Origin: an uncultured archaeon
GTDB taxonomy: Archaea > Asgardarchaeota > Hermodarchaeia > Hermodarchaeales > Hermodarchaeaceae
Length of the DNA: 27,890 nt
Direction: 5' to 3'
Assembly (NCBI GenBank): GCA_964347045.1
Contig: CAYFXC010000014.1
Coordinates: forward strand, 1-27,890
Both the position numbers and the translations under genes were made by a program. Below the pieces are notes generated by a model, which saw only the letters and a program-made list of their open reading frames with translations, did not search any database and was not told the DNA's origin. Positions 1-15,381 of this stretch are shown one piece after another (position 1 is the first letter of the stretch; the number at the start of each line of letters is the position of its first letter).

Positions 1-141
1 CCTCGGAATAATAACCGTAAACAACTGCGCCGACAATTGATTAGTGAGGAGGACTTGAAGGCATTTCTCCAAGCGTGTGGCAACGACCATCGGAGTGCCC
101 TAGTCGGAGCCATCCTATGGGAGACAGGCTTACGGGTAAGT
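1..141 (+). pseudogene. Truncated tyrosine recombinase/integrase (XerC/D-like) fragment, 5' part outside the window
   Basis: Frame from nt 1 reads PRNNNRKQLRRQLISEEDLKAFLQACGNDHRSALVGAILWETGLRVS, matching the L(S/T)xEE...L...TGxRxS box I with the catalytic Arg. Similarity stops at once and the frame runs into AT-rich promoter sequence with no HxxR or Tyr box II. Confidence 0.7.
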
Positions 142-149
142 GTGAATTA

Positions 150-172
150 CTTGATATATATTTATATACTAA
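150..172 (+). promoter_or_regulatory. Archaeal TATA-box promoter region for the cooS operon
   Basis: TATATATTTATATA at about 155-168, roughly 47-60 nt upstream of the cooS ATG. Confidence 0.5.
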
Positions 173-214
173 TCAAAAGCTTAGTTTCCGATTACCTCAA
201 AGGGATGGATATGA

Positions 215-2113
215 ATGGAAAAAAATGTAACAACAATAGATAAAGCAGTCAAACAAGTTCGCAGGGAGATCCCTCAAGAGGCAACTACAGTTTTTGATAG
301 GTACGAGGCCCAATTGCCCTTATGCGGTTTTGGCGAATTGGGTTTGTGCTGTAATAACTGTATGCAAGGACCCTGCAAGATTGACCCCTTCGGAGAAGAA
401 CCTACCAAAGGCTCGTGCGGAGCCACGGCGGATACAATGGTTGCGAGGAACTTCGTACGATCTTTAGCCGGAGGCACAAGCGCTCATCTAGACCACGCAC
501 GCCATACACTAGAAGTCTTGGTGAAAGCGGCTAAGGGTCAGGCTCCATATTCCATTAAGGATGAAGGTAAACTCAAGGGTCTTGCTGGAAAGCTTGGAAT
601 TGACACGTCATTGCCCACGAAGGAGATGGCCCTCAAATTCGCTGAAGCAGCGGAAAAGAACTTCACAGACTTGCATGGACCACTAGCCTGGTTGACATTG
701 CATGCACCAGAAAAATGCCAGGAAACGTGGATGAATCTTGGAGTTACGCCTATGAATGGGCCCTTGGATATTGTGGAAGCGATGCATAGAACAACGATGG
801 GAGTAGATGCTGATCCCGTCAACCTCATTCTAGGAGCTATTAAGCTTTCCTTGGTCGACGGCTATGCGGGACTCCAATTAGCAACTGACCTTCAAGACAT
901 TCTGTTCGGCACTCCCCAGCCAGTAGTATCTGAAGCGAATCTTGGGGTAATCAGAGAAGATGCCATAAACATTGTAGTGCACGGTCATGTTCCGCTACTA
1001 AGTGAGAAGATAGTTGAATGGGCTGGCAAACTGGATGACACAGGTAAGAAAGCAGGAGCTAAGGCTGGCATTAATGTCGTAGGAATCTGTTGTAGTGGCA
1101 ATGAAGTACTGATGCGCCAAGGGGTGCCTTTAGCCACCAATTATCTGGGTCAAGAGTTTGTTATCGCCACAGGTGCAGTTGATCTCATTGCAGTTGATGT
1201 GCAATGCATAATGCCTTCAATTGTGGATATGGCAAAATGTTATCACACAAAAGTGATTACAACCTCGCCCATAGGCAAGATTCCGGGAGCTGATCACTTA
1301 GAGTTTTCTGAAGAGAAAGCAGATGACATTGCAAGAAACATCGTTGAGAAAGCTATTGAGAACTACGGGGACCGAGATCCAACTAGAGTAAGTATTCCGC
1401 AAGAGAAATCTGAAATGATGGGGGGCTTTTCAGCAGAGGCACTGATATCTGCACTTTCGAATCTGGATTCAAAAGATCCTCTTCAACCTTTAATCGAGAA
1501 TATAGCTAATGGTAACATTCTTGGAGTAGTCGGAATCGTTGGATGCAATAACATAAAGGTTACGCAAGACTCTCTCCATACTGCGATTGCCAAGGAGCTC
1601 ATCGAGAACAATGTCCTAGTTGTTGGTACAGGCTGTTGGGCGGTTGCCGCCGCTAAGGCAGGCCTCATGGCACCAGTAGCTACAGAACAGCATGCTGGAA
1701 ATACTCTAGCTGCAGTCCTATCAGCTATTGGAAACGCCGTAGGACTAGATAAACCCCTACCTCCGTGCCTTCACATGGGGTCATGCGTAGACAACAGTCG
1801 TATTCATCAAGTATTAGCTGCATTGGCTGACAAACTAAAAGTAAGCATCAGTGATTTACCAGTGGTAGCTTCGGCTCCTGAAGCAATGACTGAGAAAGCC
1901 CTGGCTATTGGCACTTGGGCTGTTTCGATTGGGCTACCTGTTCACTTAGGCGTAGTGCCGCCAGTCCTTGGTAGCAAGTTAGTAACAGAGCTGCTAACGA
2001 GTACAGCTGAAGACCTTCTCGGTGGGAAAGTCGTAGTGGAGCCAGATCCAAAGAAGGCTGTCCAGTTTATGATCGACCATATTAAGAAGAAGCGGCAAAA
2101 ACTGGGGATTTGA
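215..2113 (+). CDS. cooS: Anaerobic Ni,Fe-carbon monoxide dehydrogenase catalytic subunit (monofunctional CooS type)
   Basis: 632 aa. D/B-cluster motif CGFGELGLCCNNCMQGPC...GSCG, catalytic SAHLDH, C-cluster ligands HGH, GICC, DVQC, GCNN, GTGC, GSCVD, and catalytic Lys in MTEKA. Confidence 0.97.
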   Translation: MEKNVTTIDKAVKQVRREIPQEATTVFDRYEAQLPLCGFGELGLCCNNCMQGPCKIDPFGEEPTKGSCGATADTMVARNFVRSLAGGTSAHLDHARHTLEVLVKAAKGQAPYSIKDEGKLKGLAGKLGIDTSLPTKEMALKFAEAAEKNFTDLHGPLAWLTLHAPEKCQETWMNLGVTPMNGPLDIVEAMHRTTMGVDADPVNLILGAIKLSLVDGYAGLQLATDLQDILFGTPQPVVSEANLGVIREDAINIVVHGHVPLLSEKIVEWAGKLDDTGKKAGAKAGINVVGICCSGNEVLMRQGVPLATNYLGQEFVIATGAVDLIAVDVQCIMPSIVDMAKCYHTKVITTSPIGKIPGADHLEFSEEKADDIARNIVEKAIENYGDRDPTRVSIPQEKSEMMGGFSAEALISALSNLDSKDPLQPLIENIANGNILGVVGIVGCNNIKVTQDSLHTAIAKELIENNVLVVGTGCWAVAAAKAGLMAPVATEQHAGNTLAAVLSAIGNAVGLDKPLPPCLHMGSCVDNSRIHQVLAALADKLKVSISDLPVVASAPEAMTEKALAIGTWAVSIGLPVHLGVVPPVLGSKLVTELLTSTAEDLLGGKVVVEPDPKKAVQFMIDHIKKKRQKLGI

Positions 2114-2129
2114 CGGAGGGACTCAATGT

Positions 2130-2855
2130 ATGGTAGCTCGGACTATAATTGCGGACCCTGAAAAATGCCAAGCGTGCAGAATCTGTACATTCCAATGCGC
2201 TGTGACCAAGTCCGATGGGAAAACCTTACTTGCAGCCATTCAAGAGGGCGTACCACCACGAATCAGGGTCATTGGTAACGTATTGGCAATTCCGAATATC
2301 TGCAGGCATTGTGAGAGTATTTGTATCTCGAACTGTCCTGCAGAGGCGATTCGAAGAACCACCGAAGGAGTTGTACGAATTGACGATGACAAATGCATCA
2401 AGTGTCTTCTGTGTCTATCTGCTTGTCCATTTGATGTCATTAAAGTCATGGAAAATACTGTGACTAAATGCGACCTATGCTATGACAGATTAGCCGAGGG
2501 AGAGATACCCGCCTGTGTGGAAAGCTGCCCGATATCTAGGGCACTGGCATTTGAGGAACCGGGAATTATGACTAATCGAAGATTCATCCTCAAGAAAGGG
2601 TTTAAGGCTCCACCCCGTCGACATGATATGAATGTGATGGCATTAAAGATGCCTCAGCAGATTTTTGATCGAATATCAAACATTCGTAAATTAGCTAGAC
2701 CTTCCAAAGTTTCTTCTGCTACGATGAGGAAGAGAGAGGAGTTCACGCTGCCACCGATTCCTCCTGATGCTTTCGATGAACTGGAAAAAATCATTAGTAC
2801 TACTGAGGTAGCTGGAAGGATAGCTAAAGTGAAGATCTGGAAGAAGGAGGACTAA
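2130..2855 (+). CDS. cooF: CooF/DmsB-like four-[4Fe-4S] electron-transfer protein with a C-terminal HdrC-like tail
   Basis: Motifs CQACRICTFQC, CRHCESICISNCP, CIKCLLCLSACP and CDLC...PACVESCP. GGAGGG RBS at 2116-2121, 16 nt after the cooS stop. About 100 extra aa follow the last Cys motif. Confidence 0.85.
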   Translation: MVARTIIADPEKCQACRICTFQCAVTKSDGKTLLAAIQEGVPPRIRVIGNVLAIPNICRHCESICISNCPAEAIRRTTEGVVRIDDDKCIKCLLCLSACPFDVIKVMENTVTKCDLCYDRLAEGEIPACVESCPISRALAFEEPGIMTNRRFILKKGFKAPPRRHDMNVMALKMPQQIFDRISNIRKLARPSKVSSATMRKREEFTLPPIPPDAFDELEKIISTTEVAGRIAKVKIWKKED

Positions 2856-2858
2856 TCG

Positions 2859-3749
2859 ATGTCTCAGAAGTTTAGTTTGTTCCCTGGTTGCATAGTCACT
2901 GGAAGATACCCTCATTTAGAGAAAGCCTCTAGACTAGTTGCCAGTCACTTCAATATAGAACTTATTGACATGAATTCCGTCACATGTTGTCCTGAGCCCT
3001 TTAGTATGCAGAATATTAGCCCTTTAACGCATCTATCGATTGCTGCCCGAAACATTAGTGTCACTGAAGAGATGGGATTAGATATGATGGTGTTGTGTGG
3101 TGGATGTCTTAGCACCTTGTTCCATGCAAATACAGCTTTGAAGAATAGCTATCAACTAAAAAACCTAGTGAATGACGTTATTGGAGAGGCTGGTCGAAAG
3201 TATAAGGGAGTGTCGGATGTAAAACACATCTATCAAATTTTGATTGAGGATGTGGGAATCCAAAGAATAAGAGAGAGTGTGAAGAAACCTCTCCGCGAAG
3301 TGAAAGTGGCAGCTCACTATGGGTGTCACTTGATGGATATTGCATTTTCAACAACTCTTGATGAACCAAATCAACCAATGGGTTTTGAAAAATTAATAGA
3401 AGCGATCGGAGCGCAGAACGTACCTCATGACAAACAACACGTCTGTTGCGGAGGGCCTATGCGTGACATCAATGATGACATTTCCAGATCCGCTTTGGTA
3501 GGAAAACTAGATGCTCTTAATATGGCTGGTGCAGATTGTATCGCCGTTCTTTGCCCTCTTTGCTACATGCAGTTCGATTCGGGTCAGTTAGTAGAACAGA
3601 GGAAGACCGGCAAAGAGTATAACATTCCGACGTTTTACTACACAGAACTTTTGGCTTTAGCATTAGGCTATTCAGAAAAGGAAATTGGGCTTACGGAACA
3701 TAGAATCACAAAGGGCCTCGAAGAAATAACTAAGAGCATCACGGCATAA
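2859..3749 (+). CDS. hdrB: Heterodisulfide reductase subunit B family protein (two CCG domains)
   Basis: FPGC, CCPEP, AARN, CGGC, HYGCH, CCGG, CPLC..QFD..Q and IP..YY.ELL.LALG motifs. AAGGAGG RBS lies inside the end of the upstream gene, with a 3-nt gap. Confidence 0.93.
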   Translation: MSQKFSLFPGCIVTGRYPHLEKASRLVASHFNIELIDMNSVTCCPEPFSMQNISPLTHLSIAARNISVTEEMGLDMMVLCGGCLSTLFHANTALKNSYQLKNLVNDVIGEAGRKYKGVSDVKHIYQILIEDVGIQRIRESVKKPLREVKVAAHYGCHLMDIAFSTTLDEPNQPMGFEKLIEAIGAQNVPHDKQHVCCGGPMRDINDDISRSALVGKLDALNMAGADCIAVLCPLCYMQFDSGQLVEQRKTGKEYNIPTFYYTELLALALGYSEKEIGLTEHRITKGLEEITKSITA

Positions 3750-4891: not shown

Positions 4892-5587
4892 ATGAGTCAG
4901 CTCGAAAAGAAACAGATTCAGTTAACTACTTCCCAATTGAAAGAATTCGACGGAAAGGAAGGAAGACCGGCATATATCGCCTACAAAGGAGTAATTTATG
5001 ATGTCTCCAAGAGCCCTTTATGGAAGAAAGGGAACCATCCAGGGGCACATACCGCTGGTAATGATTTGACAATGAGTATTATGAATGCACCTCATACTGA
5101 AGAATTATTGATGAAGTTTGAAGTTGTTGGTGAACTAATTCAAGAAGGATATACTAGACAGAAATTTGTGAACAGGATACAGAAGCTTCATATGCATTCT
5201 ATGGTAGTTCACTTTTCTCTCGCATATTCGGTCATTGTGCCGCTACTGGCTTTTCTATTCTTATTGACTCGTGAAGTTTTTTTCGAATTTGCATCGTATT
5301 TCATGTTATTGCTTGGCCTATTGGCAGGACCAGTTGCAGGATTTTCTGGGATTTTCAGCTGGAAAGTTACTTATGAAAGTCGTATGACTAAAGTATTTTC
5401 ACGGAAAATATTACTTACTTTTGTGCTCGTGCTAGTCATTTTTTTAGCGTTTGTATGGCGAACATTGGATCCAAATATTCTAATAAATACAACCAGTATG
5501 AGCTTTGTTTATTTGGCTTTAAGCATAAGCCTTGTGCCTCTAAGTGTGATGCTTGGGAATTATGGAGGAAAAATAGTATTTCTCTGA
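4892..5587 (+). CDS. Cytochrome b5-like heme/steroid-binding domain fused to a 4-TM DUF2231-like membrane domain
   Basis: L.EFDGKEGRPAYIAYKG.IYDVS.S.LW..G.H...H.AG.DLT.....APH (cyt b5-like), then H.MVVHF and four hydrophobic helices ending in G.YGGKIVF. Confidence 0.85.
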   Translation: MSQLEKKQIQLTTSQLKEFDGKEGRPAYIAYKGVIYDVSKSPLWKKGNHPGAHTAGNDLTMSIMNAPHTEELLMKFEVVGELIQEGYTRQKFVNRIQKLHMHSMVVHFSLAYSVIVPLLAFLFLLTREVFFEFASYFMLLLGLLAGPVAGFSGIFSWKVTYESRMTKVFSRKILLTFVLVLVIFLAFVWRTLDPNILINTTSMSFVYLALSISLVPLSVMLGNYGGKIVFL

Positions 5588-13256: not shown

Positions 13257-15209
13257 CTAGCCTACTGATTTTTTATGATATAACCAATATCCCACAACTG
13301 TGACCACTACTATGATTACAATTGCTGCTGCTATTGGAATGGCATAGAGTAGTAATGGATTTATGGCAAAACCGGGGAGAACGTCTAATGTGGTGGAAAC
13401 GGTTTTCCGCCAGTTATTGTTCGTGTCATAAGCTTTGATGTAATAGGTGATATTGGTTCTCAGAGCCGTTTCGGTTCCTGGAATAATTGCCTGATAATCC
13501 GCGTCCAGGAGTTGGGTCATTGCAAGGGTTTGTTCAGGTCCATTGTCCAGTTGATAGAATACTGTGACGTTCTCTACACCTGCCGTGTCATTTACCGTTG
13601 CAGTGATGGTAAAAGGCTGCCCTCCCGTAGGGGTCGGTGGGTTGTTTGCTACATTCGAAATGATTGGACCATATACATCGATGGCTTGTAAGGACGTATT
13701 CAGTAACCACTCGATGGCTTGCCTAACAAGGAGGTCGTTTTTCATGTCGGTGGCTCCGTAATCGAAATTGCTAAAGAAGGTCGTACCCGATACATAAATT
13801 CGAGAATCACCAATCGTTTCCACAGCCATCAATGGTATCGAATCTCCACCGGTTGTATCTGCAGTGGTATCATAGATGACAACAGGTGGCGGTGGATTCC
13901 CTGGAAAGTCTTGATAGAAGGTCGGGTCGCCAAAGGTGATGTTAGTGATCGCCGATGGATCTGTATACCATAAGCTGCTGGTGGAAAACATTCGGATCTT
14001 ATTCACGCCGGTCGTAATGCCATACGTCACAGTTCCGGGTAAGACATTGTCAATGTCACAGTACCAGGGTCTTCCTGGATCAAAACTATCTGAAGCAAAG
14101 ACTTGGTCATCATTTAATTGTATATGGCTTGTTAGATTATCGAGAAGCCAATTCATTTCCTGTCGGCGAAAACTAGAGTAAAAATCCGAATATCCTGTAA
14201 GGAGCATGTGGCCGTCGGTTTGGTTGACTATCCAATTTGCAATCGCGTTAATTTCAGCTGTCGTAAAGGCAAGAAATGGTGCGGTGATGATGAGTAAGTC
14301 AACGGCTTGTAGGTCATCAGGTGTAATCGTATCATCATTAATAATTATATTCACCGAAAATTGATTTAGGAAGCTTTTAAATGAGGAAAGTTGGTCCTCT
14401 GGTGCAGTGGTATAAGCATTATCATGACCTTCATCAATGAGGACGGTCCATGTTGAAATTCCGCCCGGAATGTTAGGGGGGTCGAGTCCTTGAATGGCCG
14501 AATACCATAGATTCCGAAGGCCTGTTATGGCTCGGCTTGTCTGGTTTTCGATGATGCTATGAAATGTGGGATCATTATCAAGTGGACTTGGTGAAGGAAT
14601 CGTGCCTGTCGGATAGAGCGCTCGGCACTCGTCGTAGTAGTCATGTGCAATCGTTGCATAGTCGATTAAGTATTGGCTCGGATCCCCAACGAGTGCCAAC
14701 TCACCAATCGTCGGTGAAAAAGTGGCCAAATGATAGTTAATATCCGTTTCTAATGCTGCGTGTCCAGCCCAATTATCATCAGTGTGTACAGGGATATTAG
14801 GATCAGTGAAGTAGTGGGACATGACGCCCGCTGCAAACATCCCCTTGTCCCAGGCGCCAACAGACAGGTTCTGCCGGAGATAACCATACCAGCGGTCCAC
14901 AGCAATGTGTGCTGAACGCTCTTCAGTATGTGGATAATAGAGGTGGTTATCCCAATCTTGCCAGACGACATCAGGCGTAATTGATCCGGCTTTTATCTGG
15001 GCTTCAAAAAATTCAAAAGCATCCTTCCAATCGCCTGTAGGCATTGCATCGATTGCATATTCGACCATCCACATATGCGTCGCCAGTCCCCACGCCTGAG
15101 TTGTTGAAAGTTGCGGTAAACCAACAACCAGCGAACAAGCAAGAACCGTAATAATCATGAACGCTTTGACAGATTGTTTGGGTTTGATACGATTCCACCC
15201 CTGCAACAT
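13257..15209 (-). CDS. Membrane-anchored surface enzyme: Zn-dependent phospholipase C/P1-nuclease domain, GldG/DUF4350-like domain, Ig-like domain and C-terminal TM
   Basis: Signal peptide ending TQA then WGLATH; GS..PD, NH, G.MSHYFTD...P.H and H...E zinc ligands; VLIDEGHDN domain; ITATVND.AGV.NVTVFY Ig-like domain; hydrophobic tail followed by HKK. Start uncertain (15272, 15209 or 15158). Confidence 0.85.
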   Translation of the reverse strand: MLQGWNRIKPKQSVKAFMIITVLACSLVVGLPQLSTTQAWGLATHMWMVEYAIDAMPTGDWKDAFEFFEAQIKAGSITPDVVWQDWDNHLYYPHTEERSAHIAVDRWYGYLRQNLSVGAWDKGMFAAGVMSHYFTDPNIPVHTDDNWAGHAALETDINYHLATFSPTIGELALVGDPSQYLIDYATIAHDYYDECRALYPTGTIPSPSPLDNDPTFHSIIENQTSRAITGLRNLWYSAIQGLDPPNIPGGISTWTVLIDEGHDNAYTTAPEDQLSSFKSFLNQFSVNIIINDDTITPDDLQAVDLLIITAPFLAFTTAEINAIANWIVNQTDGHMLLTGYSDFYSSFRRQEMNWLLDNLTSHIQLNDDQVFASDSFDPGRPWYCDIDNVLPGTVTYGITTGVNKIRMFSTSSLWYTDPSAITNITFGDPTFYQDFPGNPPPPVVIYDTTADTTGGDSIPLMAVETIGDSRIYVSGTTFFSNFDYGATDMKNDLLVRQAIEWLLNTSLQAIDVYGPIISNVANNPPTPTGGQPFTITATVNDTAGVENVTVFYQLDNGPEQTLAMTQLLDADYQAIIPGTETALRTNITYYIKAYDTNNNWRKTVSTTLDVLPGFAINPLLLYAIPIAAAIVIIVVVTVVGYWLYHKKSVG

Positions 15210-15381
15210 TATGAGTGTATGACAGCTTTGGTTCTGTTTATACATTAAAATCCCACTCCTACTACACGTCAAGTAAAAATGTTCTACTAAAATAATTATT
15301 CAAGACAAAGCGAAAACATTTAGATATAATATGAACAAAAGCAATGATTCCTAGAGGGTTTAGTCTACGTTTGTGAAAATA

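Follow-up and report, generated by a model that had tools for sequence, protein, structure and literature searches.

The locus and its three genes

Three co-oriented genes lie at the start of a contig from an uncultured archaeon of the order Hermodarchaeales (Asgardarchaeota; GenBank assembly GCA_964347045.1, contig CAYFXC010000014.1): cooS, for the catalytic subunit of a Ni-containing carbon monoxide dehydrogenase (CODH), a gene for an iron–sulfur (Fe-S) protein of 241 residues, and an hdrB-like gene, named after subunit B of heterodisulfide reductase (Hdr). The window, meaning the whole stretch of DNA that was analysed, comprises positions 1 to 27,890 of this contig. The middle protein is the subject of this report. 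It joins a polyferredoxin domain to a C-terminal segment that resembles the end of HdrC, and it is called the chimera below. Pfam detected no CCG domain in it, and hdrB is a separate open reading frame (ORF) with a start of its own. A gap of 3 nt separates the stop codon of the chimera (2853–2855) from the ATG of hdrB (2859). The GC content is not distinctive.

Table 1. Features of the cooS–chimera–hdrB locus (positions in the window)
Feature	Positions	Strand	Evidence
cooS, Ni-CO dehydrogenase catalytic subunit, 632 residues	215..2113	+	TIGR01702 720.9 bits (cut-off 478); Pfam Prismane 1.2e-169
Chimera ORF, 241 residues	2130..2855	+	Read from sequence
CooF/HycB-type polyferredoxin domain of the chimera, residues 1–138	2130..2543	+	16 Cys, four [4Fe-4S] motifs; Pfam Fer4_11
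Family-specific linker of the chimera, residues 139–170, motif RRFIL..F..PPRRYD	2544..2639	+	Kept in 9 family members
HdrC-like C-terminal arm of the chimera, residues 171–241	2640..2852	+	Homology to last ~65 HdrC residues; predicted HdrB interface
GGAGG before the hdrB start, within the last codons of the chimera	2846..2850	+	Read from sequence
hdrB-like gene, 296 residues, two CCG domains, ten cluster Cys	2859..3749	+	TIGR03288 283.5 bits (under its cut-off of 345); PDB HdrB chains E 1e-66

The ferredoxin domain

The Cys motifs of the chimera are C13/16/19/23, C58/61/65/69, C89/92/95/99 and C114/117/129/133, the last of which ends in PACVESCP. The score for Pfam Fer4_11 was 63.2 bits (cut-off 26.2), and the best relatives of the domain in the PDB are likewise four-cluster subunits (6cz7_B, NrfC 2vpw_B, FdnH 1kqf_B and 9mqx_E). 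The helical ferredoxin family Fer4_8 gave 19 bits, under its cut-off of 27. The HdrC model TIGR03290 (cut-off 160 bits) matched 8 places in the genome, the chimera gene not among them, and the model was not among the best 25 of the 73 NCBIfam families matched. The chimera belongs to the four-cluster Fer4_11 polyferredoxins and carries an additional module.

In the genome, the nearest paralogues of the N-terminal domain (~39% identity) are four-cluster polyferredoxins of 165–168 residues that adjoin aldehyde:ferredoxin oxidoreductase (AOR) genes. "CooF-like" is therefore a statement of fold and position, and not of orthology to the CooF of Rhodospirillum rubrum. The locus of these paralogues (L144, G000:C7:90000-106000) carries two AOR genes, each with an adjacent polyferredoxin gene, and a small Ras/Arf-like GTPase gene between them.

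Relation of the C-terminal arm to HdrC

After PACVESCP the chimera continues for 107 residues without Cys. The preliminary description of this DNA had put this extension at about 100 residues, quoted its C-terminal sequence exactly, and compared it with a pattern given for the C-terminus of methanogen HdrC. That pattern is real: the solved HdrC chains 8rvv_C and 8rvu_c, of the methanogen (Methanothermobacter) type, end with ATMELRKAVGLGELPPTTHQFPEALEEVQKIIKATGFDQLI.

The tails of the eight full-length clusters of the chimera family, plus fragments, were aligned (tail positions 32–96 correspond to protein residues 170–234) and compared with an alignment of 50 canonical HdrC proteins. The latter are relatives of HdrC1 of the same genome, which scores 211.7 bits on TIGR03290; those that are named come from Thor-, Loki-, Hel- and Promethearchaeota. 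hhalign matched the two alignments with a probability of 89–92% and E-values of 2e-6 to 7e-7, placing tail positions 61–91 on HdrC1 residues 135–171, exactly at the HdrC C-terminus. The score was 43.8, compared with a mean of 12.5 (standard deviation 2.2, maximum 20.8) for 300 column shuffles and 17.7 for the reversed alignment.

Searches with the tail inside the genome and the phylum gave matches at the same position of HdrC. Among all 16,951 stop-to-stop ORFs of at least 50 residues in the genome, a hidden Markov model (HMM) of the C-terminal part of the tail ranked the chimera itself first, followed by HdrC2 (E = 2.7e-11; residues 107–171 of a 189-residue frame) and HdrC1 (E = 0.32), with all other ORFs at E > 2. 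The tail HMM was also run against 779 ORFs from the hdrB loci of other genomes of the phylum and found 24 matches outside the chimera family (E = 1e-12 to 3e-3). All 24 also match the HdrC HMM, and every time tail positions ~31–102 lie on the last ~65 residues of HdrC. A six-frame search of 19 genomes of the order with the tail alone returned, besides the chimera, only the C-terminal parts of frames of ~190 residues, HdrC2 included (33–38% identity; E-values between 3e-4 and 7e-3 for single genomes). A search of 101 phylum genomes, with a limit of E ≤ 1e-3 in each, gave 87 matches, counting the chimera of the window genome. The others all lie in open frames of 146–220 residues, the size of HdrC, barring one 66-residue frame at a contig end, and those with coordinates that can be cross-checked sit just upstream of an hdrB. 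None of them covers tail positions 1–14 and nearly all begin at position 26 or later. The arm is most closely related to HdrC2. The second Hdr locus of the genome (L002 2–1444) encodes an HdrA that has a Lys-rich tail and a Cys-rich part of the MvhD/FlpD type at its C-terminus; HdrC2 and HdrB2 come after it.

In the column alignment the shared pattern is P..I......I...(TG[WH] or LAR)......KKR.ELGLPPIP.D...L.KI...T.L, with a final helix after it. The chimeras have P.QI..R..NI, then KKREE(L/F)(G/T)LPPIP.DA.(E/D)L.KI...T and a terminal helix ending in V/I-K-x-W, and contain R-x2-(L)G-L-x2-P-P ... A-x2-E-x3-I/L-x3-T, the pattern of an HdrC-type arm. Alignment with Asgard HdrC2-type proteins needs no gap, whereas methanogen-type HdrC requires one of 6 residues, where the chimera lacks the TVHSxP insert.

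On these profile comparisons, the last ~70 residues of the chimera (171–241) are descended from the C-terminal arm of HdrC. The match to HdrC C-termini proposed in the preliminary description is significant and specific over residues ~171–235. It does not extend to the whole tail: residues 139–170 are not HdrC-like, and neither the genome-wide search with an HMM of the N-terminal part of the tail nor the phylum search found relatives of this linker outside the family.

Predicted complex of the arm with HdrB

The arm of HdrC is reportedly in contact with HdrB in HdrABC; no such statement was found in the open literature searched. The ten Cys of the window HdrB that are assigned to clusters (C11, C43, C44, C80, C83, C156, C196, C197, C232 and C235) are invariant in 31 aligned HdrBs. 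In a tree of these 31 proteins the CODH-linked HdrBs form a clade of their own with support of 100/99.

The complex was predicted from the 31-row HdrB alignment and the family alignment of the chimera tail. The model reached an ipSAE (interaction prediction score from aligned errors) of 0.76, with 0.79, 0.76 and 0.75 in individual runs, while the best of three controls gave 0.00. For comparison, 58 of 80 solved complexes attain this mark, as against 2 of 110 mismatched pairs; these counts are only a rough guide here, as custom alignments were used. At least 53% of contacts agree between runs and the predicted local distance difference test score (pLDDT) of the partner is at least 50.

The confident interface spans protein residues 170–234, matching the HdrC-homologous stretch. 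The lowest interface errors are those of E217–T225 against HdrB 56–64 and 107–113. Part of the contacted HdrB surface is formed by A63, R64 and N65, three residues that vary little or not at all among the aligned HdrBs. Residues R202, L207, L218, T225 and W237 are invariant across the chimera family, and the invariant residues coincide with the predicted contact helix. The model supports an arm seated where the HdrC arm would be, more than it proves binding.

Family, gene order and distribution

The chimera family is rare. It comprises about eight full-length sequence clusters (220–244 residues, 53–65% identity), plus fragments, and one member is labelled Njordarchaeota. Family searches fell from 320 bits for tailed members to at most 75 bits for shorter ferredoxins that have no tail.

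The order cooS–chimera–hdrB, seen in domain terms as Prismane, chimera and CCG, was found in all seven contexts that can be read (the window, L029, L030/L031, L032, L146, L147/L148 and L149/L150), and no hdrC lies in between. An eighth, partial context (L028) ends just after the start of HdrB. The chimera and hdrB genes overlap or abut in L030, L032 and L149. The genes that flank the trio differ in each context.

The closest relative of the window trio is that of L029 (GCA_012975005.1, JABAOC010096312.1), a low-quality assembly in which frameshifts and runs of N split the called genes; its 44-residue "protein" P0003 is merely the end of the chimera's arm. An assembly or frameshift artefact was considered as the source of the chimera itself and rejected, as independent assemblies show the same architecture of 239–244 residues.

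Single-protein searches of the 18 other genomes of the order (72–91% complete) yielded no chimera orthologue; the best match has 42% identity and covers the ferredoxin domain only. CooS was not found in these 18 genomes either, and the window gene is the sole CooS found among the 19. A single-protein scan of a collection of genome contigs returned only generic ferredoxin domains (31–52% identity); its tail patterns were window-specific, so that it is weak on absence. Across 201 phylum genomes, no other HdrB exceeds 44% identity to that of the window.

Directly upstream of cooS, a frame open at the contig start (window 1–243, + strand) resembles the C-terminal part of a tyrosine recombinase or integrase (ALVGAILWETGLRVS). 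This integrase-like fragment and the lack of the trio in the 18 sister genomes hint at horizontal acquisition. Taken as a whole, the observations on context and distribution suggest that the trio is a rare, possibly mobile cassette.

Downstream, about 1.1 kb past hdrB, the window encodes a fusion of a cytochrome b5-like haem-binding domain with a DUF2231 membrane domain (4892–5587, + strand). A GNAT acetyltransferase gene on the opposite strand lies between it and hdrB, and a GNAT gene also follows the trio of L029. Further away, a Zn-dependent phospholipase C domain (E = 1.9e-10) was detected in a 670-residue protein (13257–15272, − strand), which also matches the IFT52 GIFT domain below the threshold (E = 9.8e-5; 22 bits, cut-off 27.2).

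Proposed electron path

We consider it likely that the chimera is a CooF/HycB-type polyferredoxin with four [4Fe-4S] clusters, to which an HdrC arm has been added that clamps it to the adjacent HdrB, giving a soluble path from CO to a disulfide through CooS, chimera and HdrB. From the sequence comparisons and the complex model, CO oxidation is probably wired directly to HdrB by the acquired arm.

The arm would hold the polyferredoxin on the HdrB encoded immediately downstream and would supply the affinity that HdrC normally gives. The main contact is predicted to be made by an amphipathic helix (L218, I221, I222 and T225) on the conserved HdrB surface formed by A63-R64-N65 and 107–113. CooS, probably as a dimer, the chimera and HdrB would be joined in one soluble complex. 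In it, CO would be oxidised at the C-cluster of CooS with the polyferredoxin as electron acceptor, and electrons would run along the four CooF-type clusters until they reach the pair of non-cubane clusters in HdrB, where a disulfide would be reduced. Such a path would operate without HdrA, a stand-alone HdrC or flavin-based bifurcation. The linker (139–170) may set the distance from the last CooF cluster to HdrB, or may touch CooS.

The CO2/CO couple lies at about −520 mV and disulfides are at far higher potentials. Because of these textbook redox potentials, electrons are expected to flow from CO to the disulfide. Reverse flow, in which thiol oxidation would drive CO2 reduction, was rejected as thermodynamically implausible. 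The Asgard group is not known to produce coenzyme M or coenzyme B.

The preliminary description had called the protein a CooF–HdrC chimera in which the HdrB-binding arm replaces HdrC. This interpretation is supported: the gene order fits such a replacement, the N-terminal domain is not HdrC-like, and a confident interface is predicted with the adjacent HdrB. The direction of the graft and physical binding are what we infer from these results. Chances are about even that the trio is, beyond this, a self-contained, horizontally mobile cassette for a soluble, non-bifurcating CO:disulfide oxidoreductase, with the arm as a portable "HdrB adaptor".

If this is right, the chimera would be a natural example of the transplantation of a short docking arm, and not of a whole subunit, by which HdrB gains a new electron donor. 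The predicted three-subunit enzyme would need no HdrA to link the oxidation of CO directly with the reduction of a disulfide, and would be a previously undescribed route for the disposal of CO-derived electrons in Asgard-type archaea. It bears on the role of the many Hdr homologues in non-methanogenic Asgard archaea and on their disulfide substrate. The arm profile could be used to find other proteins that plug into HdrB.

Alternatives

Several results weigh against the CooS–chimera–HdrB path set out above or limit how far it can be taken. With respect to the homology, no HdrC came up at E ≤ 10 when the PDB was searched with the tail by phmmer or with its family profile by hmmsearch, 5odc_C, 7bkb_C, 8rvu_c and 9sfi_E being in the library; the top lines were SpoIIID, NIPM and ATP synthase gamma, all at E ≥ 0.09. 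A phmmer search of 1.8 billion representatives likewise returned no HdrC, the matches being two true relatives and a repeat-protein false positive (P0004). HMMER thus gives no bridge to methanogen HdrC, and the link to solved proteins therefore rests on the 31-column profile–profile match; the stronger match of the tail is to the Asgard type of HdrC and not to the methanogen type. Searched alone against Pfam and NCBIfam, the tail matched no family, a lone SpoIIID line (E = 0.038) being dismissed as noise, and a word-indexed search returned only the chimera itself. Moreover, the Gly-His pair that is invariant in HdrC (G124 and H125 in the 50-sequence alignment) is replaced by L-A/G-R in the chimera family. 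In terms of sequence, the chimera is not a member of the HdrC family: TIGR03290 fails to match it, and the HdrC ferredoxin domain and the Gly-His are both missing.

With respect to the structure, the complex model covers the tail alone and leaves out cluster-to-cluster distances. HdrBC complexes have already been solved, and the favourable score may therefore partly reflect likeness to them. An AlphaFold2 monomer of the full chimera, calculated from a 9-row alignment, was poor (pLDDT 43.6, predicted template modelling score 0.23). In a 2026 structure paper (PMC13518236), residues of the HdrC ferredoxin domain, Y81 among them, are placed at the HdrB active-site interface, in the proton path. 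These have no counterpart in the CooF fold, so the interface can reproduce that of HdrBC in part at most, and the surroundings of the HdrB active site may differ from the canonical ones.

The best surviving alternative accepts the docking of the arm on HdrB and takes the trio as the core of a larger, possibly bifurcating complex with HdrA, MvhD-type or TrxB-like partners. In L030 (10044–14154) and L031 (6419–10529) the gene for a 310-residue TrxB-like pyridine-nucleotide-disulfide oxidoreductase comes after the trio, and then a canonical hdrC, another hdrB and an hdrA of 591 residues. Extra partners are therefore possible, and these genes may form a larger CO-linked Hdr island. The window genome, too, has HdrA(-MvhD)-HdrC2-HdrB2 and HdrC1-HdrB1 at other loci. 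We nevertheless regard a larger complex as unlikely. Nothing related follows the trio outside L030/L031, and in five other contexts, the window included, the genes on both sides are unrelated; furthermore, the HdrC ferredoxin domain, which is the usual connection to HdrA, is absent from the chimera.

Less probable still is a reading in which the HdrC-like stretch is genuine but has no function, being left over from an old cooF–hdrC fusion or deletion, with soluble acceptors for the ferredoxin and an independent HdrB. Loss of the Gly-His motif would fit decay, as would a tail identity among members of 36–55%, which is below that of the ferredoxin domain. Against this, length and motif positions are kept over the eight clusters, and the invariant residues lie on the predicted contact helix. 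In addition, hdrB is always directly downstream of the gene with the tail, often overlapping it, and an HdrB without an Fe-S partner would have no electron input.

That the resemblance arose without common descent, by chance or by convergence towards a short helical motif rich in proline, is highly improbable and largely refuted: the brevity of the canonical match and the empty HMMER searches of the PDB would agree with it, but the Asgard HdrC2-type match runs over ~65 residues at E-values down to 1e-12, the genome-wide search singled out HdrC2, no shuffle came near the observed score, and all matches fall at one position of HdrC.

Comparison with known systems

No description of a CooS–CooF–HdrB enzyme or of a chimera of CooF with an HdrC arm was found in the literature searched. 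In Inoue et al. 2019 (PMC6344411), Hdr-like COGs are listed solely for Wood–Ljungdahl contexts.

The HdrC of HdrABC (TIGR03290; 5ODC, 7BKB, 8RVU, 9SFI) shares with the chimera the homologous C-terminal ~65–70 residues, a gene directly upstream of hdrB, and the presumed role of an Fe-S wire that ends at the non-cubane clusters of HdrB. It differs in having a two-cluster helical ferredoxin domain (Fer4_8/17), where the chimera has a four-cluster domain of the CooF/HycB type (Fer4_11), and in its upstream partner, which is HdrA for HdrC and would be CooS for the chimera. HdrC also has the invariant Gly-His and, in the methanogen type, the 6-residue TVHSxP insert, neither of which is present in the chimera.

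CooF of the Rhodospirillum rubrum or Carboxydothermus type, as well as HycB, HydN, NrfC and the Fe-S subunit of AOR, have the same 16 Cys and four [4Fe-4S] motifs. The gene for CooF directly follows cooS, as that of the chimera does in all contexts, and the chimera would likewise take electrons from CODH. These relatives lack the Cys-free extension of ~100 residues. The downstream partner of CooF is an Ech-type hydrogenase, FNOR or soluble ferredoxin, whereas that of the chimera would be HdrB.

HdrD, TfrB, GlpC and DsrK resemble the proposed enzyme as non-bifurcating units in which CCG domains are fed by a dedicated Fe-S module. In these proteins, an HdrC-like ferredoxin is covalently fused to the CCG domains. 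In the chimera, only the arm of HdrC appears to have been retained, on another ferredoxin, and HdrB is encoded by a separate gene.

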